A stretch of DNA of 64,000 nucleotides from an uncultured Solirubrobacteraceae bacterium (GTDB lineage: Bacteria; Actinomycetota; Thermoleophilia; Solirubrobacterales; Solirubrobacteraceae): the NCBI GenBank assembly GCA_963756465.1, contig CAVWNK010000004.1, forward strand, positions 152,203 to 216,202. The letters are read 5' to 3'. Shown here one piece after another: positions 28,886-42,799 of this stretch (its first letter is position 1; the number at the start of each line of letters is the position of its first letter). The translations under genes and the position numbers were made by a program. Below the pieces are notes generated by a model that was given only the letters and a program-made list of their open reading frames with translations, was not told the DNA's origin and ran no database searches.

Positions 28886-29683
28886 ATGGCGGTCGTGACG
28901 TTCCTCAGCGACTACGGGCTCGACGACGACTTCGTCGGCGTCTGCCACGGTGTCATCGCGCGGCTCGCGCCGCAGGCGCGGATCATCGACGTCACGCACG
29001 GGATCGAGCGCCACGACGTGCGCACGGGCGCGCTCGTGCTGGCGCGGGCGCTGCCGCACATGCCCGCCGGCGTGCACCTCGCGGTCGTCGATCCCGAGGT
29101 CGGTGCCGAGCGCCGCGCCGTCGCGCTGCGCTGCGCCGGCGAGAGGCGGTTGCTCGTCGGTCCCGACAACGGCCTGCTGTCGCTCGCCGCGACGCGCTTC
29201 GGCGGCGTCGTGGAGGCGGTCGAGATCGGCCGCTCGGCGCTGCGCCTGGAGCCGCTCTCGGCCTCGTTCCACGGCCGCGACGTGTTCGCGCCCGTCGCCG
29301 CCCGCCTCGCCGCCGGGACCGTGCTCGCCGACGCGGGCGAGCCGCTGGACCCCGCCGAGCTCGTGCAGCTCGAGCTGCCGCGCGCCCGCAGGACCGCCGC
29401 CGGCCTGCTCGCGCACGTGCTGCAGGCGGACCGCTACGGCAACATCGTGCTCGACGCCGGGCACGACGACCTCGCCGGCAGCGGGCTGCGGCTCGGCCGC
29501 GCGGTCACGATCAACGGCCGGCCGGCGCTGTTCGCGACGACCTTCGCCGACGTCGCGGACGGCGAGCTGCTGCTGTACGAGGACGGCTACCGCGCCCTGT
29601 CGCTGGCCGTCAACCGCGGCTCGGCGCTGGAGCTGCTCGGCCTGCGCGCCGACGACGAGATCCTGATCGCGCCCGCATCGTGA
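28886..29683 (+). CDS. SAM hydrolase / SAM-dependent halogenase-family protein (DUF62)
   Basis: VTFLSDYGLDDDFVGVCHGVI, VVDPEVG, GPDNGLL, FHGRDVFAP, DRYGN. Confidence 0.85.
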   Translation: MAVVTFLSDYGLDDDFVGVCHGVIARLAPQARIIDVTHGIERHDVRTGALVLARALPHMPAGVHLAVVDPEVGAERRAVALRCAGERRLLVGPDNGLLSLAATRFGGVVEAVEIGRSALRLEPLSASFHGRDVFAPVAARLAAGTVLADAGEPLDPAELVQLELPRARRTAAGLLAHVLQADRYGNIVLDAGHDDLAGSGLRLGRAVTINGRPALFATTFADVADGELLLYEDGYRALSLAVNRGSALELLGLRADDEILIAPAS

Positions 29684-30369
29684 GCCCGCCGCTCGGCGCG
29701 CCGCGGGTGCATCACCGCAGCACCGACTCGACGAGCGACCGGGCGCGGGCGCTCGCGCTCGCCGGCGCGCCGCACGGCACGCTCGTGACCGCCGGCGAGC
29801 AGCGCGCCGGGCGCGGGCGCCAGGGCCGCAGCTGGAGCGCGCCGCCGGGACGCGCGCTGCTGCTGTCGCTCGTGCTGCGCGACTGGCCGGCGCTGCTGCC
29901 GATCGCCGGCGCGGTCGCGGTCGCCGACGTCGCCGGCGCGCGGGCGACGATCAAGTGGCCCAACGACGTGCTGCTCGACGGGCGCAAGCTCGCGGGCGTG
30001 CTCGGCGAGGGCCGCCGGCAGGAGGGCTGGGCGGTGCTCGGGATCGGCCTCAACGTCGCGGTCCGCCACGACGATCTGCCGCCCGAGCTGCGCGATCGCG
30101 CGGCGACGCTGGGCCTCGCGCCGGCGCAGATCGAGGCGACGCTCGACAGGCTGCTGCGGGCGCTCGAGCACCGCCTCGCGCAGCCGACGGCGCAGCTGCT
30201 CGCCGACTATCGCGCCCGCGACGCGCTCACCGGACGCGCGGTGCGCTGGGCGCACGGGACCGGGATCGCGCGCGGCATCGACGACTCGGGACGGTTGCTC
30301 GTCGAGCTCCCCGACGCGACGCGCACCGCGCTCGACGCCGGCGAGGTGCACCTGCAGCAGCCCGCCTGA
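29680..30369 (+). CDS. birA: Biotin--[acetyl-CoA-carboxylase] ligase (no N-terminal HTH)
   Basis: AGEQRAGRGRQGRSWSAPPG and KWPNDVLLDGRKLAGVLGE. GTGA overlap with the upstream gene. Confidence 0.88.
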   Translation: MSPPLGAPRVHHRSTDSTSDRARALALAGAPHGTLVTAGEQRAGRGRQGRSWSAPPGRALLLSLVLRDWPALLPIAGAVAVADVAGARATIKWPNDVLLDGRKLAGVLGEGRRQEGWAVLGIGLNVAVRHDDLPPELRDRAATLGLAPAQIEATLDRLLRALEHRLAQPTAQLLADYRARDALTGRAVRWAHGTGIARGIDDSGRLLVELPDATRTALDAGEVHLQQPA

Positions 30370-30439
30370 GCCTGGATCTCGGTCGCCGAGGCAGACCGCG
30401 TCCAGGCCGGCGCCGGCCCGAAGCTACGCTTCCGGGTCG

Positions 30440-31279
30440 ATGTCGCGCCGCCCGCTCTTCCTGCTGACGCTCGCCCTGGCGAGCGCGCTCGGCGCGCTCG
30501 CCGTCTGGGGTGCGGCATTTCACGTCGTCGGCCTGCGCAGCCTCGACGCCGGCGCGATGCAGGCGTTCACGGGCGTCGCCCGCGTCCCGCTCGAGCCGTC
30601 GATCCGAGGTGTCGCGCGGCTGGCCGATCCGAGCTGGTTTCTGACGGGCTGCGCGCTGCTCACCGCCGTCGCGCTGCTGCGACGGCGCTGGCTGATGGCG
30701 GTCGCCGTCCCGGCGATCCTGCTGAGCGCCAACGCCACGACGCAGCTGCTCAAGCCCGCGCTGGCCGATCCGCGCACGCTCGACCTGCGCGGCGTGGAGA
30801 TGATCTACCACGGCTCGTGGCCGAGCGGTCACTCGACGGCGTCGATGTCGCTGGCGCTGGGCCTCGTGCTCGTCGTCGGCCCGCGGCTGCGACCGCTGGC
30901 AGCGTCGATCGGCGCGGGCTACGCGATCGCGGTCGGCTACGCGCTCGTCGCGCTCGGCTACCACCTGCCCAGCGACGTCTTCGGCGGCTACCTCGTCGCG
31001 GCGACGTTCACGCTCGCCGGCGCCGCCGCGCTGACGGCGCTCGAGGCGCGCGCGCCCGCGCGCGTCGCCCGCGAGCGGACCCGGCGGGCACTCCCCGTTT
31101 CGCAGCTCGCGGCGAGCGGCGGGCTGCTGCTGGCTTGCAGCGCGGCGGCGGTCGTGCTGGGCGCACCCGGGATGACGCTCAACGCACTGCAGCATCCGAG
31201 CGCGATCGCCGCCGGGGCCGCGATCGCCGCGCTCGGCCTGACGCTCACCGCCGGGTTCGCCGTCGTCCTGCGGCGCTGA
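30440..31279 (+). CDS. PAP2-family membrane phosphatase, tandem paralog 1
   Basis: KP.....R, SWPSGHSTASMSLAL, GYHLPSDVFGGYLVA. Confidence 0.8.
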   Translation: MSRRPLFLLTLALASALGALAVWGAAFHVVGLRSLDAGAMQAFTGVARVPLEPSIRGVARLADPSWFLTGCALLTAVALLRRRWLMAVAVPAILLSANATTQLLKPALADPRTLDLRGVEMIYHGSWPSGHSTASMSLALGLVLVVGPRLRPLAASIGAGYAIAVGYALVALGYHLPSDVFGGYLVAATFTLAGAAALTALEARAPARVARERTRRALPVSQLAASGGLLLACSAAAVVLGAPGMTLNALQHPSAIAAGAAIAALGLTLTAGFAVVLRR

Positions 31280-32115
31280 TGGCGCGCGCCCCCGCCGTGC
31301 CGGCGGCGCTCGCCGCCGGCTGCGCGCTCGCCGTCGTGGCGCTGTGGTTCGCCGCCAACGACCTCGCCGCCGGGCGCGAGCTCGACGCGGCCCTCGCCGA
31401 TGCGATCTACAGCGCCTTCGCCGGCTTCAACCAGGAGCTGCTCAAGGGCGCGTCGAGCCTCGGCGACACGCTGCCGATCGCCGTCGGGTCGCTGGCGCTC
31501 GCGGCGCTCGCCTGGCTGCGCGGCGGGCGCCGGCTCGCGCTACTCGTCGCGTTCGTCCTGCTGGCGGGCAACGTCGCCACGCAACTCTCCCAACCGGCGC
31601 TGATCGCCGCCCGTCATGTCGATCTGACGGGGACCGCGATCGAAGGCTCGGGCTCTTGGCCGAGCGGTCATGCGATGGCGGCGATGCTGCTCGCGCTGCT
31701 GGCGATCGTCGTCGCCGGGCCGCGGCTGCGCGTGGTGACCGCGCTTGTCGGGCTCGCCTACGCGCTCGGGCTCGGCGTCGCGATCGTGGCGCTCGGCGGG
31801 CACCTTCCCAGCGACGTCGCCGCGGCGTACCTCGTCGCGGCAGCGTTCACGTTCGCGGGCGCGGCGGTCCACGCGGCGCTGCCCGACGACCGCGCGGCGG
31901 ACGGCGCCCGCAGCCGCTCGCCGCGCGTGGCGCCGGCGCTCGGCGCGCTGGCCGCCGCCGCAGTTCTCGCGAGCGGGATCGGCAAGGCCGTCGTGACGCG
32001 CCGCGACGAGGTCGCGCGGGCGCTCGATCAGGCCCCGCTCGTGCTCGCCGGCGCGGCTGCGCTGACCGTCGCCGTCCTGATCGGCGCCGGCGCCGTGCTC
32101 GTCGCGCGCCGCTGA
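31279..32115 (+). CDS. PAP2-family membrane phosphatase, tandem paralog 2
   Basis: SWPSGHAMAAMLLAL and GGHLPSDVAAAYLVA. ATG 31279 overlaps the stop of paralog 1 (TGATG). Confidence 0.8.
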   Translation: MARAPAVPAALAAGCALAVVALWFAANDLAAGRELDAALADAIYSAFAGFNQELLKGASSLGDTLPIAVGSLALAALAWLRGGRRLALLVAFVLLAGNVATQLSQPALIAARHVDLTGTAIEGSGSWPSGHAMAAMLLALLAIVVAGPRLRVVTALVGLAYALGLGVAIVALGGHLPSDVAAAYLVAAAFTFAGAAVHAALPDDRAADGARSRSPRVAPALGALAAAAVLASGIGKAVVTRRDEVARALDQAPLVLAGAAALTVAVLIGAGAVLVARR

Positions 32116-32164
32116 GCGACGATCCCGCGCGCAAGCCCCCGGCGCCACGCGGCGTTGATCGGTC

Positions 32165-33114
32165 ATGCCGGTCTCCGCCGAGCCGCCCAGCGCGATCGAG
32201 GTTCGCAGCGTCTCGCGCAGGTTCGGCGAGCACGAGGTGCTGCGCGACGTGTCGCTGCGGGTCGCTCCGGGTGAGATCCACGCGCTGCTGGGGCCCAACG
32301 GCGCGGGCAAGACGACGCTGCTGCGAATCCTCTCGGGGCTCGTCGACCCGTCGGCGGGCGCGGTCGAGCTGACGGCACGCCCGGGTCTCGTGCCGTCGGG
32401 CGATCGCACGTTCTATCTGCGCATCTCCGGCCTGGAGAACCTCGTCTTCTTCGCCCGCATGCACGGGCTGCAGCGCGCGCCGAGGCCAAGCGCAGGGCGG
32501 CGCAGGTGCTCGACCTCGTCGGTCTGACGGAGGCGACGCGCCGGCCCGTCGGGCGCTACTCGCACGGTATGCAGAAGCGGCTGTCGTTCGCGCGCGCGCT
32601 GCTCGCCGACCCCGCGCTGCTGCTCGTCGACGAGGCCACCCACGACCTCGACCCGGAGGGCGCCGAGCGCATCCGCCGGCTGACGTCGCAGCTCGCCGCG
32701 CGCGGCGCGGCGATCCTCTGGACGACGCAGCGCATCGAGGAGATCCGCGGCTTCGCGGACGCGATCACGTTCCTGCACGACGGCAAGGTCCGCTTCGCGG
32801 GGTCGGTGCCGCAGATGATCGCGCGCGGCGACGCGTCGCCGCGCTACGTCCTGCGCGTGCGCAACGGCCGCCCGGACGTGGCGCCGGCGCCGGCGGCGCT
32901 GCAGCAGGCGGTCGGCGCCGGCGCCGTGATCGCGGCCGGCGACGGCAGCGGCGAGCACTTCCTGCTGGCGCCGCGCGACGGGACGACGCTCGGGGCCGCG
33001 ATCGCGGCGCTCGCCGGCGCGGGCTACGACGTGCTCTCCTGCCGCCAGGAGCGCTCGGAGGTCGAGGAGGCCTTCCTTGCGCTGACGGCCGACGACGGGG
33101 CGGCGGACGGATGA
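32165..33114 (+). pseudogene. ABC transporter ATP-binding protein split by a frameshift in a (GC)4 run at ~32473-32481
   Basis: ORF 32165..32527 carries Walker A ([14 protein letters not shown]). ORF 32506..33114 carries the signature and Walker B (YSHGMQKRLSFARA, LLLVDEATHDLD). The second frame reads back to ...[16 protein letters not shown], so the two halves form one gene. Confidence 0.8.
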
Positions 33115-33938
33115 CCGCCGCCGCGCTGACCGAGGCCGGCAAGGTCGGCGCGTTCGTCCGCCGCGACCTGCTGATCGCCTGGAGCTACCGGCTCGCGTTC
33201 GTCACCGACGTCGTGAGCATGGCCGCGCAAGCGTTCGTCTTCTCGATCGTCGGGCAGCTCGTCGACCCGGCGCGGCTGCCCTCCTACGACGGCTCGCCGA
33301 CGACCTACATGGAGTTCGTCGCGATCGGCCTCGTCCTGAACCTCGTCATCACGCTGCTGCTCGATCGCGTCGCCAACGCGATCCGCCAGGAGCAGGTGAT
33401 CGGCACGCTCGAGTCGCTGCTGACGACGCCGACCCGGACGGCGACGATCCAGATCGGCTCGGCGGCGTTCGAGTTTTTGTGGGTGCCGGTGCGCGCGACC
33501 GTGTTCCTGCTGGCGATCGCGCTGGGATTCGGGCTGGACCTGCACGTCAGCGGGATCCTGCCGGCGGCGGTCATCCTGCTGGCGTTCGTGCCGTTCGTGT
33601 GGGGGCTCGGCCTCGTGAGCGCGGCGACGATGCTGACGTTCCGCCGCGGCGGCGGCGGCGCGGCCGCGATCGCGGCGCTGCTGGGCCTCGCGTCGGGCGC
33701 CTTCTTCCCCGTCGATCTGCTGCCCGGCTGGCTGAGCTGGACGACCGCCGTCAACCCGATCGCGATCGCGCTGGAGGGGATCCGCGAGAGCCTGCTCGGC
33801 GGCGCCGACTGGACGCAGGCCGGGCCCGCCGTCCTGACGCTGACACCGCTGGCCGGCGCCGCGCTGGCGGCGGGCGTGCTCGCGTTCAGGCTCGCGCTCA
33901 GGCGTGAGCGGCGACTCGGAACGCTGGGCCTGTACTGA
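33111..33938 (+). CDS. ABC-2 type transporter permease
   Basis: 275 aa with six hydrophobic helices. N-terminus FVRRDLLIAWSYRLAF is typical of ABC-2 permeases. ATGA overlap with the ATPase. Confidence 0.8.
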   Translation: MTAAALTEAGKVGAFVRRDLLIAWSYRLAFVTDVVSMAAQAFVFSIVGQLVDPARLPSYDGSPTTYMEFVAIGLVLNLVITLLLDRVANAIRQEQVIGTLESLLTTPTRTATIQIGSAAFEFLWVPVRATVFLLAIALGFGLDLHVSGILPAAVILLAFVPFVWGLGLVSAATMLTFRRGGGGAAAIAALLGLASGAFFPVDLLPGWLSWTTAVNPIAIALEGIRESLLGGADWTQAGPAVLTLTPLAGAALAAGVLAFRLALRRERRLGTLGLY

Positions 33939-35008
33939 TGCGCTGGGAACGCGTCGAGGCGCTCGTCGAGCGCGCGCCGCAGCTCTCGGACCTGCAGCTG
34001 CACGGGCTCGATCTCGTCGCCGCGCAGCGACTGCGCGCGCGCGGCGCCGAGCTGCCGCCGGCGCTGCTCGCCCACGTCCGCGTCGCGGCCGCGATCGCGC
34101 TGGCGGCACCCGTGCTGCTGCGCCGCGCCCGCACCGCCTACGACGGTCGCCTGCTGCTGTTCAAGGGACCGGAGGTCGCCGCGCGCTACCCCGACCCGGC
34201 GATGCGCAACTACTCCGACCTCGACCTGCTCGCCGACGACGCGCCGGCGGCACAGCGGGCGCTGCTGGCGGCGGGGTTCGTGCGCACGGGGCTGTGGGCG
34301 CCCCATATCGACGTCCACCACCTGCAGCCGCTGGCCTGGCCGGGGCTGCCGATCGCGGTCGAACTGCACGCCTATCCGCACGTGCCGGCCGGCCTGCGAC
34401 CGCCGCCGACGCGGGAGCTGCTCGCGACGGCGGTGCCGTCGTGCTTCGCCGCGGACGTCGTCGAAACGCTCGCCCCGGCGGAGCACACGCTCGTCGTCGC
34501 CGCACACGCCTGGGCACACGACGCGCTCGCGAACATCGGGCAGCTGCTCGATGTCGCGCTGCTCGCCTCGCAGACCGACCGGCCGACGCTGCGCGCGCTC
34601 GCCGCGCGCTGGGGCTGGCAGCGGCTGTGGCGCGCCACGGAGGCGACGCTGGAGGCGCTGTTCGACGACGGCCGGCCGCCCGCGGCACAGCGCCTCTGCG
34701 CCCCCCATCTGCGCGCGGCACGCGAGCGCACGCTGCTGGAGCGTCACGTCGCCGAGCTCGCCGGCCCGGCGTTCGGCCTCCCGCCACGGCGCGCCGCGCT
34801 GGAGTCCGCGCGCGTGCTGCGACGCCGCATCCTGCCGGGCCCGGAGGAGACCTGGCGGCGCAAGGCGCGCCGCGCCCGGCGTGCGCTGCGCCATCGCGGC
34901 CTGCGCCACAGCGAGCACGACGCCCGCCTGCCGAGCGAGGATCTGCAGATCGGCGCGATCCCCGGCCTCGAGCGCGCGCCCGTCCCCGAGCCGCGAGGCC
35001 GCCCATGA
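33938..35008 (+). CDS. Uncharacterized nucleotidyltransferase family (PF14907-like), putative RiPP tailoring enzyme
   Basis: LLLFKGPEVAARYPDPAMRNYSDLDLLADDAPAAQRALLAAGF and VELHAYP. TGATG overlap with the permease. Confidence 0.7.
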   Translation: MRWERVEALVERAPQLSDLQLHGLDLVAAQRLRARGAELPPALLAHVRVAAAIALAAPVLLRRARTAYDGRLLLFKGPEVAARYPDPAMRNYSDLDLLADDAPAAQRALLAAGFVRTGLWAPHIDVHHLQPLAWPGLPIAVELHAYPHVPAGLRPPPTRELLATAVPSCFAADVVETLAPAEHTLVVAAHAWAHDALANIGQLLDVALLASQTDRPTLRALAARWGWQRLWRATEATLEALFDDGRPPAAQRLCAPHLRAARERTLLERHVAELAGPAFGLPPRRAALESARVLRRRILPGPEETWRRKARRARRALRHRGLRHSEHDARLPSEDLQIGAIPGLERAPVPEPRGRP

Positions 35009-35277
35009 CCGAGCCGGTGTGGCGGCTGCGCGCGGACGGGCTGGACTGGCGCGTCGTCGACGGCGAGGCCGTGATCCTCGACGCCGAGCGCTCCGCCTAC
35101 AACGCGACCAACGCCAGCGGGACCGTGCTGTGGACGCGCCTGCAGCACGGCGCGACGCGCTCCGAGCTCGTCGCCGCCCTCAGCGCGCGCTTCGCGATCG
35201 AGCGCGCACGCGCGGAGGCCGACGTCGACGCGTTCCTGGCCGATCTGCGCAGCCGCGGGCTGCTCGTCCGGTCGTGA
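35005..35277 (+). CDS. PqqD-family RiPP recognition element (lasso B1)
   Basis: 90 aa: VDGEAVILDAERSAYNATNASGTVLWTRLQHGATRSELVAALSARFAI...VDAFLADLRSRGLL. ATGA overlap. Confidence 0.85.
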   Translation: MTEPVWRLRADGLDWRVVDGEAVILDAERSAYNATNASGTVLWTRLQHGATRSELVAALSARFAIERARAEADVDAFLADLRSRGLLVRS

Positions 35278-35630
35278 GACGGCCGCCTTCGATCGCGACC
35301 CTGCGCGCCGCCTGGTGGGCGCACCGCGCGCTGCGCGACGCGCGCCGCCAGCTCCCCCGGCGCCCGCTCGACGAGGTGACGCTGGCGTCCCCGCCGCCGC
35401 TGCCGGCGGATGCCGTCCGCGGCGTCCGCGCCCTGCTCGCGCGGCGCCCGCACAGCTGCCTGGAAGGGGCGCTCGTGCTGCAGCGCTGGCTCGCCGCCTA
35501 CGGCGAGCCGCGCGACGTCGTGATCGGCGTCGTCGCGCCCGGCGAGGCATTCGGCGCGCACGCCTGGATCGACGGCGATCCGGCCGCAGCCGCCGAGCCG
35601 TTCGTCGAGCTGTGCCGCGTGCACCCGTGA
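35274..35630 (+). CDS. Transglutaminase-like cysteine protease (lasso leader peptidase B2)
   Basis: 118 aa with a Cys/His/Asp arrangement: SCLEGALVLQRWLAAYG...VIGV...FGAHAWIDGD. GTGA overlap. Confidence 0.8.
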   Translation: MRRPPSIATLRAAWWAHRALRDARRQLPRRPLDEVTLASPPPLPADAVRGVRALLARRPHSCLEGALVLQRWLAAYGEPRDVVIGVVAPGEAFGAHAWIDGDPAAAAEPFVELCRVHP

Positions 35631-36766
35631 CCGGCGCCGGCGCAGCGGAGCTCTCGGCGCTGGACATCGCGTGCGGGCTGGTCTTCGACGGGCGCCCGCC
35701 GCGGCGCGCGCGACCGCTCCCGAGCGCGCGCATGACGCCGGGGCGGGCGCTGTGCGAGGCGGTCCTGCCCGCGCTCCTGCGCGCGCCCTGCCTCGTCAGC
35801 TTCTCGGGCGGGCGCGACTCGTCGCTCGTGCTCGCGGCCGCGACACGGGTCGCCCGGCGCGAGGGCCTGGCGGACCCCGTGCCCGTCACCAACCGCTTCG
35901 CCGATGCGCCGGCGGCCGAGGAATCGCGCTGGCAGGAGCAGGTCGTCGAGCAGCTCGGGCTCAGCGATTGGCAGCGGCTGACGTTCGCCGACGAGCTCGA
36001 CGCCGTCGGACCCTATGCGCAGCGCGCGCTGCGGGCGCATGGCCTGCTGTGGCCCTTCAACGTGCATTTCCATCTGCCGTTGCTGGATCTCGCCCGCGGC
36101 GGCTCGCTGCTCACCGGTCTCGGCGGCGACCAGCTCTTCGGCGTCATCGCGCCGGCGCCGCGCCGTACGCCCGCCCGCCGGGCGGCCCACGGCGCGCTCG
36201 GGTGGGCGCCGCGAGCGCTGCGGGCGGCCGTGATCGCGTCGCGCCGCCCGCTCGACCCGCCCTGGATGCTCGCCGCCGGCAGCCGCGCCGCGACGCGGGC
36301 GATGGCCGCCGAGCTCGGCGCCGAGCCGCGCGGCCCGCTGGCCGCGCGGATGGCCCACGAGCTCTCGATGCGCTACATGCGGGTGACGCAGCAGTCGCTG
36401 GCGCTGTGCGCGGGCGCGGGCGACGTGCTGCTCTCCAACCCGCTCTGCGCGCCCTCGCTCTGGGGTGCCGTCGCGCACGCCTGCGCGGCGCCCGACGCGC
36501 GCCGCGACCACCAGCGCGCGCTGCGCGACCTCTTTCCCGGCTGGCTGCCGCAGGCGCTCGTCGCGCGCCGCGAGAAGGCGTCGTTCGATGAGGTGTTCGT
36601 CGCCGCGCACGCCCGCGCCTTCGCGCGCGACTGGGACGGCGGCGGCGTTCCACGCGACCTCGTCGACGTCGGCGCGCTGCGCGAGCACTGGCGCTCGGAC
36701 GAACCGTCGTGCCTGTCGTTGACGCTGATGCAGGCCGCGTGGCTGGCTCGAGGCCGACACACCTAG
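35627..36766 (+). CDS. Asparagine synthetase-like PP-loop ATP pyrophosphatase (lasso cyclase C homolog) lacking the N-terminal GATase-like domain. Alternative start ATG ~35731.
   Basis: SFSGGRDSS PP-loop sits only ~60 aa from the start. LTGLGGDQLFG. GTGA overlap with B2. Confidence 0.75.
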   Translation: MTGAGAAELSALDIACGLVFDGRPPRRARPLPSARMTPGRALCEAVLPALLRAPCLVSFSGGRDSSLVLAAATRVARREGLADPVPVTNRFADAPAAEESRWQEQVVEQLGLSDWQRLTFADELDAVGPYAQRALRAHGLLWPFNVHFHLPLLDLARGGSLLTGLGGDQLFGVIAPAPRRTPARRAAHGALGWAPRALRAAVIASRRPLDPPWMLAAGSRAATRAMAAELGAEPRGPLAARMAHELSMRYMRVTQQSLALCAGAGDVLLSNPLCAPSLWGAVAHACAAPDARRDHQRALRDLFPGWLPQALVARREKASFDEVFVAAHARAFARDWDGGGVPRDLVDVGALREHWRSDEPSCLSLTLMQAAWLARGRHT

Positions 36767-36830
36767 ACGATCGTCCAGCGGCCGCACGAGCCGACCGGCC
36801 TAGGCTTGACCGGAATGTAGTGTCACCCCC

Positions 36831-36842
36831 GGAAGGCCTTCC
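36831..36842 (+). promoter_or_regulatory. Shine-Dalgarno GGAAGG embedded in the perfect 12-bp palindrome GGAAGGCCTTCC, 7 nt upstream of the precursor ATG
   Basis: Read directly from the sequence. A TAnnnT box (TAGTGT, 36818-36823) lies just upstream, but no convincing -35 at correct spacing. Confidence 0.5.
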
Positions 36843-36843
36843 G

Positions 36844-37011
36844 ATGGATGCTCAGGCCCACGACAGTTCCTATGAAGCACCGAAGCTTCGCGACCTCGGC
36901 TCCGTGCACGAGCTCACGCAGGGCGGCCTGTTCGGCGACCGCTCCGACGGCCTCCTGATCCTCGTGAAGTACGGCGGTGGCGGCGGGGGCGGCGTCGTCA
37001 ACGGCTCCTAG
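36844..37011 (+). CDS. Lasso-peptide precursor (55 aa): leader MDAQAHDSSYEAPKLRDLGSVHELTQ, core GGLFGDRSDGLLILVKYGGGGGGGVVNGS
   Basis: ATG with an SD. The leader fits YxxPxLx3Gx5Tx with Thr at -2. Core starts with Gly1 and has Asp9. It lies 77 nt after the C gene. It is the 3' part of track ORF 36709..37011. Confidence 0.75.
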   Translation: MDAQAHDSSYEAPKLRDLGSVHELTQGGLFGDRSDGLLILVKYGGGGGGGVVNGS

Positions 37012-37864
37012 CCGATCGGCCCGGCAGCTGCTCGGCGAGCAGCTGCGTCGCGGCCGCCAGTGACGACCAGGCGCGTTCGCGGCGCAGCTGTAAGCACGGG
37101 AGCGCGCTGAGCGCGACGAGCGCCGCCGGATCGGCGGGCAGCAGCCGTACCGCGCGGTGCGGGACGACCTGTCGCAGCCGGTCGGCGCCGCGGATCGGCG
37201 TCAGCGACGGCGGGCCGTCACCCCACGCCAGCACGACCCAGCCGCGCAGCGGCAGCTCGGCCGCGACCGGGTCGAGCGCCAGGCGCCAGCGGTTGCGCAG
37301 GCCGATGCGCCCGAGCGGCTCGCCGGCGCCGAGTTCGCGCGCAGACTGCTCGCGCAGGTCGATCGAGCGCGGCCCCGCGAGCGCCGTGAAGCCGTCGAGG
37401 ACGAGCAGGTCGTCGCTGAGCACGCCGTGGCCGGCGAGCGCGAGGCTGGCCAGCGTCGTGCTCTTGCCCGCCTCCTTGTCGCCGAGCAGCGCCCACGCGC
37501 CGCCGCCGATCACGACGGTTCCGCAGTGAAAGCTCTCCCGCCCGAGCCAGCGCGCCGCGACCGCGGCGACGGGCGCGAGGTGCGGATGCACGAGCGCCGC
37601 CGGCGTGACCGCACGCGGCAGCGCGTACTCGGCGCGCAGCGGCGCGCGCTCGATCGCGACCGAGCCGCCCGCGGTCAGGCGCAGCTCGGCGTGCTGCTCG
37701 GAGACCGACTCGTACTCGGGCAGCGGGCCCGTCTCGATGCGGCAGCGCAGGTCGAGCACGGGCCAGGACGGCGGCGCGTCGACGAGCAGATCCTGCGCGC
37801 GGTCGACGCCGGCGCCGCGCAGCCGGAAACCGTAGGCGCCGCGGTCAGGCGGCCGACTCGACAC
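36998..37864 (-). CDS. HPr kinase C-terminal-domain-like P-loop protein (putative RiPP Ser kinase). Start is GTG 37864.
   Basis: GDKEAGKSTTLASLALAGHGVLSDD. The N-terminal 73 aa of the 361-aa track ORF are Arg-rich and overlap the helicase. The stop overlaps the precursor 3' end by 14 bp. Confidence 0.7.
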   Translation of the reverse strand: MSSRPPDRGAYGFRLRGAGVDRAQDLLVDAPPSWPVLDLRCRIETGPLPEYESVSEQHAELRLTAGGSVAIERAPLRAEYALPRAVTPAALVHPHLAPVAAVAARWLGRESFHCGTVVIGGGAWALLGDKEAGKSTTLASLALAGHGVLSDDLLVLDGFTALAGPRSIDLREQSARELGAGEPLGRIGLRNRWRLALDPVAAELPLRGWVVLAWGDGPPSLTPIRGADRLRQVVPHRAVRLLPADPAALVALSALPCLQLRRERAWSSLAAATQLLAEQLPGRSARSR

Positions 37865-40800
37865 CGTCGTCGAGCGGCGCGGAGCCGTCCGCGCCCTCCT
37901 CGCCGCTGGCCTGCGCCGGCTTGGGTGCCGTGCGGCGCGCGGGCGCGCGGCGGCGCTTGGGCTTGGCCTCGTCGAGCGACGGTGCCGCGTCGGCCTTGGG
38001 CTTCGCCGGCCGCGTGGCCTTGGCCTTGGCCTTCGTCGTCGTCGCCTTCGCGCCGGCAGCCTTGGGCTTGGCCGTCGGCTCATCCGTCGCCGCAGCCGGC
38101 TTGCGCACGGTCGCGCGGCGGCGCTTGGGCGCCGCCGGCGACGCCTGCTCCGCGGCGTCCTCGGCGCGAGCCGGGACGTCCGCGGTCTTGGGCGCGCGGG
38201 CGGCCAGCAGCGCAGCCGCAGCGTCCGCGATCGCCTCGACCGCGAGCGCCTCGTCGACCGGCTTCTCGGGCGGCCTGCGCGAGCGCGAGCGGCGCGACGC
38301 CGGCGCGGGCGTCGGCGTGTCGTCCTGGTCGCGGATGGCGTCGGCCGCGTCGTCGCCGGAGGCCGCTGCGGGCGCGGTTCGCTCGGGATCGGTGTCGCGG
38401 TGTGGGGCGCGGCCGTTGCGCGCGCGGCGCGAGCGCGTCCGGCTCGAGCTGCGCCCGGAGCCGCGCTCGTCGCCGTCGACCCCGGTCCCGTCCTGCGCGG
38501 TCGCGAGCGCGACCACCTCGGCCGTGCCCTCGGCGCCCTCCGCGACGCCGCCCTTCTTGCGCCGGCGGCGGTTGCCGCGCCGGCCGCGGCTCTTGGGGAA
38601 GTTGCGCAGCAGCTCGCGCGAGAGCGCGCTCGGCTTGCGCGCCAGGCGCGTCCGCGCGCCGCGCAGGATCTCCTCGCCCTCGGGCGTATGCGCGATCGCC
38701 GCGGCGAGCAGCGCGGCGCTGAGGCGCCGGTCCTGCTTGCGCGCGGCGTGCACGAGCCGGCGCGCGTTGCGCGCGTGCGCGGCGCCGCTGGAGTTCACGA
38801 GCAGCCCGAGCAGGCGCTTGGTCTCCGGCCAGCGCTGGACGGCGTACTCCTCGTGCACATCGCGCGTGTACGAGGCCAGGCGCCAGATCCAGTCGTTGGC
38901 CTGGTCGCGCCGGCCGATGCGCTTCTCGGCGAGCGCCAGCAGGCAGATCTTCGTGCCCTCGCGGCGCTCGTCGCGCGTCCAGCCCGAGATGACGTCGACG
39001 ACGGCGCGGTCGAAGGCCTCGGGATCGCGCGCCGTGGCGATCTCCTGCAGCGCGCGCAGGCGCAGCTGCGGGTTCTTGTTGCGCTCCACGGCGGTCAGCA
39101 GGAACGCGCGCTTGAACTCGCCGCCGCGGTCGAAGTGCAGCATCGCGCGGGCCCGGCGCCAGCCGCTCGGCGCGACGCGCGCGCCGGCCAGGGCGGCCCA
39201 CTGGATCTGCTCGCCGTAGGGCAGGTGCTCGACGGCGATCCGCCACAGCTCGCGCTCGAAGACCTCGATCCGCCGATCCTCGTCGCTCGTCACCGGCAGC
39301 ACGCGGCGCTCGACGCGCACGCGCCGGCCGCGGCCGCGGCGGACGGGGCCGACGACGATCGCGCCGCCGCGGTAGACGTCGCGGTCCAGCAGCGAGTGCA
39401 GCGTCACGACGGGATCGTCGTTCTTCGTGTTCGGCGCGACGAAGTCGACGACGACGCCCGCCTCCTTGCCCGGATGGCGGCGCGTGACGCGGCCGACGCG
39501 CTGCTGGTAGATGCGCTTGGAGGCCGTCGGCGCGAGGTGCATGCAGACCGTCGCGCGGGGTGAGTTCCAGCCCTCGGCGAGCAGCTGCGCGTTGACGAGC
39601 ACGTCGATGTCGCCGCGCTCGTAGCTGGCGAGGATCTCGGCCAGCTCGCGCTTGGGCGTCTCGCCCGAGACCCCCATCGCCTTCATGCCCTGGTCGCGGA
39701 AGGCCTGCGCGACGTTGTAGGCGTGGCGCACGCCGGCGGCGTAGACGACGCCCGGCACGCCGTTGAAGCGCGACTTGTAGAGGTCGGCGATGGCGAAGTT
39801 GAAGGGCGCCTGGTCGAGCAGCTCGGCGAGCATCTCCTGGTCGAACTCGACGTCGACCTCGCCGCGGCGCAGCGGCACGTTGGCGATGTTGCGCACGTCC
39901 TGGCCGGGCGGGATCCGCACGCAGCGCAGCGGCGAGATGACGCCGCGGCGGGCGGCCTGCGCGAGGTCGAAGCGCGACGTCTGCGTCGGGAAGAGGTCGG
40001 TGACGTGGCGTGCGATCAGCGCGCCCGTCGCGGTCATGCCGATGAAGATCGGGCCCGACCACTCGCGGATCGCGGCGCTCGTCTTCTCGCCCAGCGCGGT
40101 ATGCGCCTCGTCGCAGATGACGATCGAGTAGGCGGGCGAGATGCTGCCGGCGTTGCGCACGAACCACTGGTACGTCTCGACCGTGACGGGGCCGTTGGCG
40201 GCGTCCTGGCCCTTGAGCAGGGCGGGCGTGACGCGCTTGGCGTAGCCGCGCTGCTTCAGCTCGCCGTGGAACTGGTCGACGAGGTTGCGGCGGTGGGTGA
40301 GGATCAGGATCCCGCCCGTGCGCGACGCGTCGACGAAGCCCATCGCGGCGACGGTCTTGCCGGCGCCGGTCGCGTGCTCGAACCAGAAGCGCTTGTGGGC
40401 GTTGGGGTCGTCGGGCTGCTCGTCGAGCTGGTCCTCGTCGAAGACGGCCTCCGCCGCGTCCTCCTCGGACTCCTCCTCCTCCTCGTCCTCGTCGTCGTCG
40501 CCCATGTCGATGTCGACCTCGAAGTCCAGCGGCTCGATGACCTCCGGCTCGTCGTCGTCGTCGTCCGGCGCGTCGGCGGCGCCGCCGCGAAATCGCCGTC
40601 GTCCTCGTCGTCCTCGTCGACCGCCAGGACGGGAGCGGCGGAGGGAGCGCCACCGTTGCCCGCGCCGTTGCCGTTCTGGCGCTGCGCCTCGGCGAGCAGC
40701 GCGGTCAGGGTGCCCGACAGGGCGTCGACCTGATGCGGGTTCAGCGCGGTGCCGTCGGCGAGCCTGGGTTCGCCGTCGGACAGCACGCGCTCGAGGCCGA

Positions 40801-41032
40801 GCATGAGCGAGTAGCGCCGCCGCCACTCGGTCGACGGCACCTTCGCGCCGGCCTCGATCTCCAGCAGCGCGGCATCGAGCGCGCGCCGGCGCGCGGTGCC
40901 GGGTGCGAGCGCGGCCTCCGTCGTCTCGCCCGCGTGCACGAACGACTCGCGGGTGAACTTCTCCGCGCGCGATGTTTCGGAAGGATTGGGAACGGACGCG
41001 GCCACGACGGCCACTGGCGTGGGATCAGCCAA
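37845..41032 (-). pseudogene. SF2 DEAD/DEAH-box helicase with an acidic low-complexity insert and a Lys/Ala/Pro-rich basic tail. Frame broken at ~40570-40590.
   Basis: Motifs LNPHQVDAL (upstream frame), then ATGAGKT, CDEAH, MTAT, QRVGRVTR (downstream frame). Tail ...AKPKAAGAKATTTKAKAKATRPAKPKA.... Putative TTG start at 41032 after AGGAAG. Confidence 0.7.
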
Positions 41033-41227
41033 GATCGGCTTCCTGCTCGAACGTGAGGTGGATCGCGTTGCCACAAGCTGTCGCGATCCAGAGCCCGGGT
41101 CGAAACCCGGCGGGCGGGGTGAGGAACTGCGGCGAACGACCGGCCCTCGGTACCCGCGTTCTTCGCAGGATAGCGAACGAACCGGACGTGGCGCACCCGA
41201 TTCCAGCGGTCTGCAACGCTTCCCCGG

Positions 41228-41812
41228 ATGCGCAGGCTGCTGATCGCGATCGCGGCGCTGGCCGTCACCGCCGCGGTCGTCGTGGGCGTCCTCGACGCGC
41301 GTGACAGCGACCGCGCCACGACGGACGCGCCCGCGCCGCTCTCGCTCGCCGAGGTTTCGCGGCCGCTCCCGGGCGCGCCGCCGCAGCTCGCCGCCCTGCG
41401 CCGCCGCGTCAACGATCTTCAGCCCGGTGGGGCCGAGGCGCTCGACGCGCAGCTGCGCGCCCTGCGCGGCCGACCCGTCGTCGTGAACCTGTGGGCCTCC
41501 TGGTGTGACCCGTGCATCTTCGAGCTGCCGATCCTCCAGCGCCAGGCGCTGAAGTTCGGGACACGGGTCGCGTTCTTGGGCGTCAATTCGGGTGACAACC
41601 GCGACGACGCGCGCGCGCTGAGCGAGCGCTTCCCGATGCCCTATCCCTCCTTCGAGGATCCGCGCCAGGCGGTCACGGGCCGCTACGGCGCCGTCGGCCT
41701 GCCGGCGACCGCGTTCTACGACGCGCGCGGCAAGCGCACGATCGTTCATCAGGGCCGCTTCACGAACGAGGCGCAGCTCGAAGCGGCGATCGAGCGCTAC
41801 GCGCTGGGCTGA
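41228..41812 (+). CDS. TlpA/ResA/CcmG-like thiol-disulfide oxidoreductase (membrane-anchored thioredoxin fold)
   Basis: N-terminal anchor LLIAIAALAVTAAVVVGV. Active site VVNLWASWCDPC. Confidence 0.8.
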   Translation: MRRLLIAIAALAVTAAVVVGVLDARDSDRATTDAPAPLSLAEVSRPLPGAPPQLAALRRRVNDLQPGGAEALDAQLRALRGRPVVVNLWASWCDPCIFELPILQRQALKFGTRVAFLGVNSGDNRDDARALSERFPMPYPSFEDPRQAVTGRYGAVGLPATAFYDARGKRTIVHQGRFTNEAQLEAAIERYALG

Positions 41813-41818
41813 CGCGAC

Positions 41819-42799
41819 GTGACCGAGATCAGGATCGACCCCCTGACGGGCCTGCGCGCGATCGTCGCGACCGCTCGCCTGGAGCGACCCGGCGGTCAGC
41901 TGCAGGTCGGGCCGCAGGCGCCGATCGACCGCGCGACCGACCCCTTCGCCGAGGGTCACGAGGACCAGACGCCGCCGGAGCTGTACGCGTTGCGCCCGGA
42001 CGGCGGAGCAGCCGACGGCCCCGGCTGGTCGGTGCGCGTCGTGCCCAACCGCTACCCGGCGCTGGCGGCGGACGGCGGCGGGCGCGGACCCGACCCGCAC
42101 CCCGAGCTCTTCAGCGCGCTGCCCGCGCGCGGCGCGCACGAGGTGATCGTCAACAGTCCCGAGCCGGTCTGCTCGCTCGCGAGCCTGTCGGTGCAGCAGG
42201 TCGAGCTCGCGGTCGAGGTGTGGCGCGAGCGGATGCGCGCGCACGGCGGCGCGGCCTACGTGCACGTCTGCGTCAACGAGCGCAGCGACGGCGGCGCGAC
42301 GCAACCGCACACGCACGCGCAGCTGTTCGCCCTCGGCTTCGTGCCCGCGATCGTCGCCCGCGAGCGAGAGCGCTTCGGCGCCTACGCGGTGCGCACGATG
42401 GGCGCCAACCTGCTCGAGGACCTCGTCCAGGAGGAGGTCCGCCGCCGCGATCGCATCGTCGCGATCGACGCGGAGGCGGTGCTGTCGTGCCCCTACGCCT
42501 CGCGCCACGAGTACGCGCTCATGCTGACCCCGCGCCGCCCCCGTGAGCGCTTCGAGGACGACGGACCCAGCGGTGCGGCGCTCCTGCACGACGGCTTGTC
42601 GCGCCTGCGCCGGCGCTTCGGCGCGAGCCCGCCGCTGAACCTCTGGGTCCGCACCGCACCGCGCGACGCCGACCGCTTCTGCTGGCGGATCGACATCGTG
42701 CCGCGGCTGACGCACGAGGCCGGTCTCGAGCTCGGGACCGGCGTGCACCTCAACACGGTCGCGCCCGAGCAGGCCGCGGCGGAGCTGCGCGAGGCGTAG
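41819..42799 (+). CDS. galT: Galactose-1-phosphate uridylyltransferase-family (HIT superfamily) nucleotidyltransferase
   Basis: IDPLTG, VVPNRYPAL, HEVIV, QPHTHAQLFA (HxHxQ). Confidence 0.8.
   Translation: MTEIRIDPLTGLRAIVATARLERPGGQLQVGPQAPIDRATDPFAEGHEDQTPPELYALRPDGGAADGPGWSVRVVPNRYPALAADGGGRGPDPHPELFSALPARGAHEVIVNSPEPVCSLASLSVQQVELAVEVWRERMRAHGGAAYVHVCVNERSDGGATQPHTHAQLFALGFVPAIVARERERFGAYAVRTMGANLLEDLVQEEVRRRDRIVAIDAEAVLSCPYASRHEYALMLTPRRPRERFEDDGPSGAALLHDGLSRLRRRFGASPPLNLWVRTAPRDADRFCWRIDIVPRLTHEAGLELGTGVHLNTVAPEQAAAELREA

Follow-up and report, generated by a model that had tools for sequence, protein, structure and literature searches.

A single-domain asparagine-synthetase-type C protein as probable ring-closing enzyme of a lasso-type peptide operon from an uncultured Solirubrobacteraceae bacterium

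Can the C protein of a lasso-type biosynthetic operon close a peptide ring when the entire N-terminal half of its characterized counterparts is missing? This question is raised by a gene for a protein of 379 amino acids, referred to here as short C, in a 64,000-nucleotide stretch of contig CAVWNK010000004.1 from an uncultured Solirubrobacteraceae bacterium (assembly GCA_963756465.1). This stretch, which we call the window, is the part of the genome that was analyzed, and all coordinates are given in its numbering. An initial annotation of the DNA had described the protein as a lasso cyclase homolog reduced to the PP-loop synthetase domain, encoded next to the proteins B1 and B2 of an operon for a peptide that is made on the ribosome and modified after translation (RiPP). 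It had offered two interpretations: either the N-terminal domain is dispensable for macrolactam formation in this system, or the enzyme carries out a different ATP-dependent carboxylate activation. Our in silico analysis indicates that short C is a genuine, conserved single-domain member of the asparagine-synthetase-B superfamily that probably functions as the ring-closing C protein of a lasso-type RiPP operon. Our confidence in the exact ring and in its threading is lower than that in the role of the protein as a macrolactam synthetase.

PF00733 is the sole Pfam domain of short C; the match extends from residue 53 to residue 360 and covers most of the model (positions 18-333 of its 354; E 2.3e-10; score 41.1 bits, cut-off 21), which bears out the proposed reduction to the synthetase domain. 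Just 57 residues lie ahead of the PP-loop SFSGGRDSS. The SGGxDS signature begins at residue 60 in short C, compared with residue 199 in the 513-aa McjC protein, whose sequence was taken from an Escherichia coli plasmid, and residue 235 in the 554-aa AsnB protein of E. coli. The GxGGD motif is found at positions 164, 298, and 348 of these three proteins, respectively, and is followed by 215, 215, and 206 residues. The matching spacing and C-terminal length indicate that the synthetase half of short C is complete and as long as that of McjC; its deficit of about 140 residues relative to McjC, and of about 175 relative to AsnB, is all N-terminal. On the TIGR01536 profile for full-length asparagine synthetases, residues 55-120 of short C align with positions 255-315 of 517 at 20.3 bits versus the 267 bits required, which sets the protein apart from full-length asparagine synthetase B with its N-terminal Ntn glutaminase domain and Cys1. 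Since this alignment starts at position 255, approximately 200 profile positions have no counterpart in short C; residues 46-249 of McjC occupy positions 102-312 of the same profile. Short C equally falls outside the LarE-type proteins, which have a PP-loop domain of roughly 250 aa and a catalytic Cys (TIGR00268, 16.9 bits versus a cut-off of 150), and it does not have the two-domain build of lasso cyclases, i.e., about 500-650 aa with a GATase-like domain ahead of the PP-loop. The cyclase ShiC, for example, comprises 562 aa by its coordinates (PMC9774768).

The most trivial explanation for such a short protein would be a truncated pseudogene or a mis-assembled gene that lost its N-terminal domain to an indel. 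The neighboring gene for an ABC transporter ATPase is apparently frameshifted in the same assembly, which indicates that local indel errors do occur. For short C, we consider an artifact hardly credible, and a survey of the protein family has already refuted it. The length of the proteins is 366-430 aa across the family; the median length of 268 family proteins is 394 aa, and their PP-loop starts at a median residue of 59, in 263 out of 264 proteins no later than residue 100. ORF lengths in these high-GC genomes are those of maximal, uncurated open reading frames (ORFs), and 35 of 82 related loci contain an in-frame stop that keeps the ORF from exceeding 420 aa. The N-terminus is conserved in an alignment of 40 sequences (L9 and L12; A15 and G17 are invariant), and the first position of the family profile lies no more than 60 nt, mostly no more than 12 nt, from the B2 stop codon in 59 of 62 loci. 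This family evidence makes local indel errors irrelevant for the short-C gene. An N-terminal domain restored by correction of an upstream indel, which the initial annotation had named as a finding that would speak against it, did not appear after any plausible correction.

The GTG start codon (35627-35629) overlaps the TGA stop codon of B2 (35628-35630), exactly as had been noted. It had also been argued that B2 occupies the upstream frame, leaving no room for a mis-called start. This argument does not hold as worded, as the frame is open to position 35315 and the maximal ORF would encode 483 aa. The start itself stands: the upstream extension is an Arg/Ala/Pro-rich off-frame sequence across B2 without any counterpart in the family, whose alignment begins at the GTG codon. 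A downstream start at Met36 was rejected as well, because it would remove the conserved residues 9-17 with their two invariant positions.

A homolog search retrieved more than 1344 relatives, the best 120 of which are 226-464 aa long (almost all of them 340-464 aa) and contain PF00733 only. A hidden Markov model (HMM) search of 1.84 billion cluster representatives (50% identity) yielded 2257 matches with E<=1e-3, of which 960 reached E<=1e-30; with few exceptions, the 150 best representatives are 375-420 aa long, and the profile starts within their first ~40 residues. In a scan of one genome per species, relatives were present in 222 genomes, mostly from Solirubrobacterales, Gaiellaceae, and other Thermoleophilia represented by metagenome-assembled genomes (MAGs); further hosts are the cultured Solirubrobacter taibaiensis, several Micromonospora (e.g., the complete genome NZ_CP109273.1), and MAGs of Conexibacter and Baekduia. 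Given the many homologs of the same length, short C is a member of a large family and not a one-off. The initial annotation had allowed that homologs of this length might turn out to be common lasso cyclases that are already characterized; common they are, as the 960 clusters and 222 genomes demonstrate, and full-text literature searches revealed no characterized lasso cyclase among them.

The genes around short C are conserved along with it. In a survey of loci that was seeded with the motifs of the family itself, 82 loci with short C contained a gene for an HprK-like kinase (75 loci), B2 (73), B1 (72), an ABC-2 permease (63), and an NTP_transf_5 protein (58). The conserved order is ABC exporter, NTP_transf_5, B1, B2, short C, precursor, and HprK-like kinase. 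In two of these loci, L001 and L002, the genes are arranged identically, beginning with the ABC genes and ending with the kinase, within entirely different flanks, and the flanks of L002 are unrelated to those of the window. Moreover, natural fusions occur among the family representatives (P0145, P0181, P0206, P0180): short C is joined to a C-terminal sulfotransferase, to an NTP_transf_5 domain, or, in P0180, to an N-terminal B2 protein. Such fusions link short C in function with the lasso protease as well as with the enzymes of lasso tailoring.

An AlphaFold2 model of short C, built on 40 homologs, was obtained with a pLDDT of 93.6 and a pTM of 0.92. It consists of one globular alpha/beta domain in which a short N-terminal arm (helix 11-16) and a helix formed by residues 38-50 precede the PP-loop strand. 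Foldseek searches of the PDB gave TsnB9, human asparagine synthetase (ASNS), beta-lactam synthetase, carbapenam synthetase, and E. coli AsnB as the best matches (E 5e-7 to 3e-5), with the model superposing on the synthetase halves of these proteins; for the AsnB-family matches, the query-normalized TM-score is 0.39-0.55 at 13-19% identity. LarE comes next, with an overlap of ~140 residues and a TM-score of 0.24. At the level of sequence, a phmmer search of short C against the PDB gave no match, and the family profile produced only marginal matches, to beta-lactam synthetase and LarE.

In the 40 homologs (49-87% identity), residues S58, F59, S60, G61, G62, D64, and S65 of the PP-loop are invariant, and the loop aligns with those of beta-lactam synthetase, LarE, AsnB, and McjC. 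Equally invariant are T163, G164, G166, G167, and D168, as well as R314 and K317. K317 is aligned one residue after K449 of AsnB (LPASVAWRQKE) in an HMM alignment and lies one residue past the end of an alignment that stops at K443 of beta-lactam synthetase (1jgt; LPAETVNRPK); because these alignments are one residue off, the equivalence of K317 to K449 and K443 is only approximate. Judged from these alignments, the catalytic apparatus of an adenylating synthetase of the AsnB type is intact in short C.

An AsnB-type synthetase domain without its glutaminase domain could still use free ammonia, and the best structural match, TsnB9, is a tailoring enzyme of the amidotransferase type; short C might hence be an ammonia-dependent amidotransferase, or another adenylating tailoring enzyme that amidates an Asp residue or a C-terminus; it would then not be the cyclase, and the peptide of the cluster would not be a lasso. 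We judge this to be highly improbable. The operon would then lack a cyclase despite its B1, B2, and lasso-type leader, and an Asn in place of the conserved Asp could simply be encoded by the precursor gene. Furthermore, short C and B2 are conserved as a pair with overlapping stop and start in 59 of 62 loci, and one member of the family has the two fused.

The features of the precursor are those expected for the substrate of a lasso cyclase. Short C is a PF00733 homolog found together with a B1 protein of the PqqD type, a B2 protein of the Transglut_core3 type, and a lasso-type precursor of 55 aa (36844-37011). The core of this precursor (GGLFGDRSD...) follows a leader that ends in LTQ; it thus possesses one of the N-terminal residues found in lasso cores (Gly, Ala, Ser, or Cys), an acidic residue within positions 7-9, and Thr at position -2. 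Its end (...NGS) provides the C-terminal Ser that, along with an HprK-related gene, is typical of the kinase-type lasso clusters, and among 87 cores from related loci 38 end in Ser and 21 in Ser-Pro. Between a hydrophobic segment and the C-terminal Ser, the window core (36922-37008) also carries seven consecutive glycines, KYGGGGGGGVVNGS; the cores of L001, L003, and L034 have comparable stretches of 5-6 Gly.

From the intact catalytic motifs, the canonical features of this precursor, and the lack of any other candidate cyclase in the operon, we infer the role of a macrolactam synthetase for short C. With its Gly1 and Asp9, the window precursor favors the reading in which the N-terminal domain is dispensable over the one that invokes a different carboxylate activation. 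In the pathway that we propose, B1 would bind the YxxPxL leader and B2 would cleave after Thr-Gln. Short C, through its PP-loop (S58-S66), Asp168, and Lys317, would then adenylate the beta-carboxylate of core residue Asp9 and join it to the alpha-amine of Gly1, yielding a macrolactam of nine residues. The HprK-like kinase and the NTP_transf_5 protein would decorate the C-terminal Ser, and the ABC-2 transporter would export the product. A precedent for the decoration comes from paeninodin and pseudomycoidin, where HprK-like kinases phosphorylate the C-terminal Ser, which is subsequently glycosylated via PsmN-type proteins (PMC9266682).

What takes the place of the missing domain? Searches of the 64-kb window with the N-terminal domains of AsnB and McjC (tblastn and phmmer; two query sequences and a low sensitivity) returned noise only (E>0.6), and the conserved operons of L001 and L002 contain no Pfam domain of the GATase type. 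The earlier statement that no other ORF of the cluster could supply this domain is supported only in part: by a test of low sensitivity, none is detectable in the window or in the operon of its relatives. The function might alternatively be supplied in trans by B2, the kinase, the nucleotidyltransferase-like protein, or a distant gene, in which case the cyclase would be split and not minimal. The B and C proteins of canonical systems are mutually dependent (PMC11420955; PMC13352647), and the fusion in P0180 puts B2 into the sequence position of the missing domain. However, B2 is a protease with a transglutaminase fold and only 118 aa, not an Ntn-type domain, and the negative domain searches just described argue against such a supply, which we deem very unlikely. 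With the N-terminal domain absent and no recognizable gene replacing it, the domain would be dispensable in this lineage, its role perhaps being assumed by a direct contact between B2 and C. Its dispensability is plausible by analogy: all McjC residues that were probed in a validated AlphaFold model of McjA, McjB, and McjC, namely K337 (substrate contact), S440 (cavity rim), and R438 (McjB interface), are located in the synthetase half (PMC11420955).

Several observations weigh against short C being a canonical lasso cyclase. Its similarity to McjC, the characterized cyclase with which it was compared, is marginal: a profile-profile alignment (hhalign) of columns 39-169 of the short-C family with columns 182-307 of the McjC family reached a probability of only 32% (E 4.9e-4; 114 columns) and is confined to the stretch from the PP-loop to GGD. 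This comparison is weak because the search for McjC homologs yielded only eight proteins for the profile, and NCBIfam offers no lasso-cyclase HMM against which short C could be measured; McjC itself matches only TIGR01536, and that weakly. No match to short C was obtained by tblastn in the PLSDB plasmids (7.3 Gb), and the same holds for B2. A canonical cyclase or a stand-alone N-terminal domain could possibly be encoded elsewhere in the genome, and the chemistry of the family members is assigned here by sequence and model. Finally, an Asp or Glu residue at core positions 7-9 is found in only 34 of the 87 cores of the related loci, so that 53 do not conform to the definition of a lasso core.

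This last point deserves closer attention, since most of the relatives' precursors have no acidic residue at positions 7-9 and the usual reaction of the family may therefore be non-canonical. Lasso-type precursors were detected with the leader HMM in 76 of 83 loci and furnished the 87 unique cores; tandem genes for two or three distinct precursors occur in several loci. All cores contain a conserved Asp in the context [ST]-D-[GY]-x-x-[FL], situated 7-18 residues away from the cleavage site marked by Thr(-2). A Lys residue is present exactly six residues ahead of this Asp in 68 of the 87 cores (about 72 after correction by hand of miscalled Asp positions), and the Lys-Asp spacing remains constant whatever number of residues (0-13) precedes the Lys. 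Precursors with the pattern K-x5-D-[GY]-x-x-F are encoded, for instance, at L050:6131-6256, L036:7237-7380, L021:7115-7243, and L059:6305-6412, and examples of the corresponding core sequences are GCDKRFGGSDGFTF... (L050) and ...WTKTIGPPDYFTF... (L036). Many cores of this type (e.g., L039, L050, L022, L048, L036) have a pair of Cys residues, one located 1-4 residues ahead of the Lys and the other at a distance of 2-4 residues from the C-terminus; if bonded to each other, they would anchor the N-terminal stub to the tail by a disulfide. The cores without the Lys all begin with Gly and carry the Asp at position 8 or 9; they comprise those of the window, L003, L004, L082, and a Micromonospora group. 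In a neighbor-joining tree of the C proteins, the Gly1-type clade of the window is nested among Lys-type clades.

The K-x5-D pattern suggests either closure via the internal Lys or rings that exceed those of any known lasso peptide, and the relatives' precursors thereby lend unexpected support to a variant of the different-activation reading that the initial annotation had put forward. According to this variant, the same Asp would undergo the ATP-dependent amide formation, with the side-chain amine of an internal Lys or, at any rate, some partner other than residue 1; instead of a canonical lasso, this would give a lasso-like or lariat peptide whose N-terminal stub is free. By our own atom count, a ring between the epsilon-amine of Lys and Asp over seven residues has 26 ring atoms and equals the canonical eight-residue ring between Gly1 and Glu8; in addition, the conserved Cys pairs of many cores would join the regions of the stub and the tail. 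Against this stands the window core itself, which has no Lys six residues ahead of its Asp and whose Gly1 and Asp9 fit the canonical reaction, as do those of its closest relatives L003 and L004. The Lys could also be conserved for another reason, and the argument draws on precursor sequences and not on chemistry. As an account of short C, we therefore regard this alternative as unlikely.

For the family as a whole, we put forward a tentative hypothesis, to which we assign clearly less than even chances: the short proteins might constitute a distinct ring-closing lineage without an N-terminal domain, most members of which close the ring on the epsilon-amine of the Lys in K-x5-D and not on the N-terminus. 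Their products would then be lasso-like peptides that retain 0-13 free N-terminal residues as an extension, in many cases tethered to the tail by a disulfide, and the Gly1...Asp9 arrangement of the window would be a secondary switch back to closure on the alpha-amine from within a Lys-type clade. The loss of the N-terminal domain may be linked to a relaxed choice of the nucleophile. For the protein encoded in the window, closure between Gly1 and Asp9 remains the reaction that we favor.

The operon is compact, with overlapping stops and starts on the plus strand, as seen from the list of ORFs and from profile searches (Table 1). The start of B2 overlaps the stop of B1 as GTGA, and B2, the presumed leader peptidase, carries a Cys within HSCLEG, a His within AHAWI, and an Asp within DGD. 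A second PF00733 gene is not present in the 64-kb window. The apparent frameshift of the gene for the ABC ATPase is located near 32470-32503, inside a GC-repeat stretch: residues 2-108 of the L001 homolog match frame 2 (32195-32479) and residues 116-314 match frame 1 (32503-33096), reflecting either an assembly indel or a pseudogene. The gene for the HprK-like protein is convergent with that of the precursor; its TIGR04352 match is far below the cut-off, and the assignment draws on this weak match together with the P-loop and the conserved synteny. The first ~68 residues of its longest ORF are Arg/Pro-rich and extend over the 3' terminus of the helicase gene upstream (37845-40826, minus strand); conservation with the L001 homolog begins near residue 69, and the only in-frame starts are ATG at 38083 and GTG at 37864. 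Synteny of the window with L001 (OY970068.1, the MAG chromosome of an uncultured Actinomycetes bacterium) extends from 29680 to 42799, far past the edges of the cluster; the shared genes encode a BirA-like ligase, two PAP2 phosphatases, the cluster proteins, a ResIII/Helicase_C helicase, a thioredoxin-like protein, and a GalT-like protein.

Table 1. Features of the lasso-type operon of the uncultured Solirubrobacteraceae bacterium, in coordinates of the 64-kb window.
Feature	Position	Strand	Evidence
ABC transporter ATPase	~32165-33114	+	tblastn with the intact 318-aa L001 homolog, two frames
ABC-2 type permease (exporter)	33111-33938	+	PF01061, E 1.7e-18
NTP_transf_5 nucleotidyltransferase-like tailoring enzyme, PsmN-type	33938-35008	+	PF14907, E 3.9e-22
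B1, PqqD-like RiPP recognition element	35005-35277	+	PF05402, E 3.4e-17; NF033530 lasso_PqqD, E 6.5e-13
B2, transglutaminase-like leader peptidase, 118 aa	35274-35630	+	NF033537 lasso_biosyn_B2, 34.7 bits (cut-off 33); PF13471, E 9.4e-11
Short C, PP-loop synthetase, presumed macrolactam synthetase, 379 aa	35627-36766	+	PF00733
PP-loop SFSGGRDSS, residues 58-66, ATP pyrophosphatase motif	35798-35824	+	Sequence
GLGGD, residues 164-168, within the LTGxGGDxLF motif	36116-36130	+	Corresponds to McjC GHGGD and AsnB GEGSD (hhalign)
Lys317 of short C	36575-36577	+	Invariant in the family alignment
Precursor leader MDAQAHDSSYEAPKLRDLGSVHELTQ, YxxPxL...LTQ, Thr at -2	36844-36921	+	NF033521 lasso_leader_L3, 29.9 bits (cut-off 19)
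Precursor core GGLFGDRSDGLLILVKYGGGGGGGVVNGS plus stop; Gly1, Asp9, C-terminal Ser	36922-37011	+	
HprK-like kinase, P-loop GDKEAGKST, presumed kinase for the C-terminal Ser	36998-38083 (longest ORF)	-	TIGR04352, weak match, E 6.8e-4

Canonical lasso cyclases are hard to purify and dependent on their B proteins, and no structure of them has been solved (PMC11420955, 2024; PMC13352647, 2026). Short C may be a naturally minimal and more tractable form of this class: a natural version of 380 aa with a confident in silico fold and a distribution over hundreds of genomes could yield the first experimental structure and could serve as a minimal catalyst for engineering, and it makes the role of the GATase-like domain directly testable. 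If K-x5-D is indeed the ring-forming pair of the relatives, a lasso-like topology not described before would result. The producers belong to the Thermoleophilia, abundant soil bacteria whose natural products are almost unexplored. In full-text literature searches, which covered only a minor part of the papers in subscription journals and may have missed an earlier mention (e.g., in the RODEO datasets), we found neither a description nor a characterization of short lasso cyclases, no lasso peptides from Solirubrobacter, Gaiella, or Conexibacter, and no Lys-Asp lasso rings.

Compared with known systems, short C shares with canonical lasso cyclases such as McjC the PF00733 PP-loop synthetase with its FSGGxDS and GxGGDxxF motifs, an equal distance of about 100 residues from the PP-loop to GGD, the equally long remainder after it, and a position beside B1, B2, and a precursor with Thr(-2), Gly1, and Asp9. 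It differs from McjC in lacking the ~140 N-terminal residues that make up the whole GATase-like domain and in its marginal sequence similarity, and the precursors of most of its relatives break the rule of 7-9-residue rings. The paeninodin and pseudomycoidin clusters have the HprK-like kinase, the PsmN-type NTP_transf_5 protein, the split B1 and B2 proteins, the ABC exporter, and a precursor whose last residue is Ser in common with the short-C clusters; they encode full-length cyclases and belong to Bacillota, whereas the short-C clusters come from Thermoleophilia and other Actinomycetota. With LarE, QueC, and the N-terminal domain of TilS, short C has in common a stand-alone PP-loop core without an amidotransferase domain, but only about 140 residues superpose on LarE, and short C retains the entire AsnB-type synthetase domain including its C-terminal helical part. 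The two-domain enzymes of the AsnB family (AsnB, 1ct9; human ASNS; beta-lactam synthetase, 1jgt/1mb9; carbapenam synthetase, 1q15; TsnB9, 7ylz) display the same synthetase fold, the PP-loop, and a nearly aligned Lys; short C has no Ntn-type N-terminal domain, and its substrate is presumably a peptide side chain. By its fold and motifs, short C resembles an AsnB-type synthetase domain and by its context a lasso cyclase, and it fits the architecture of neither family.

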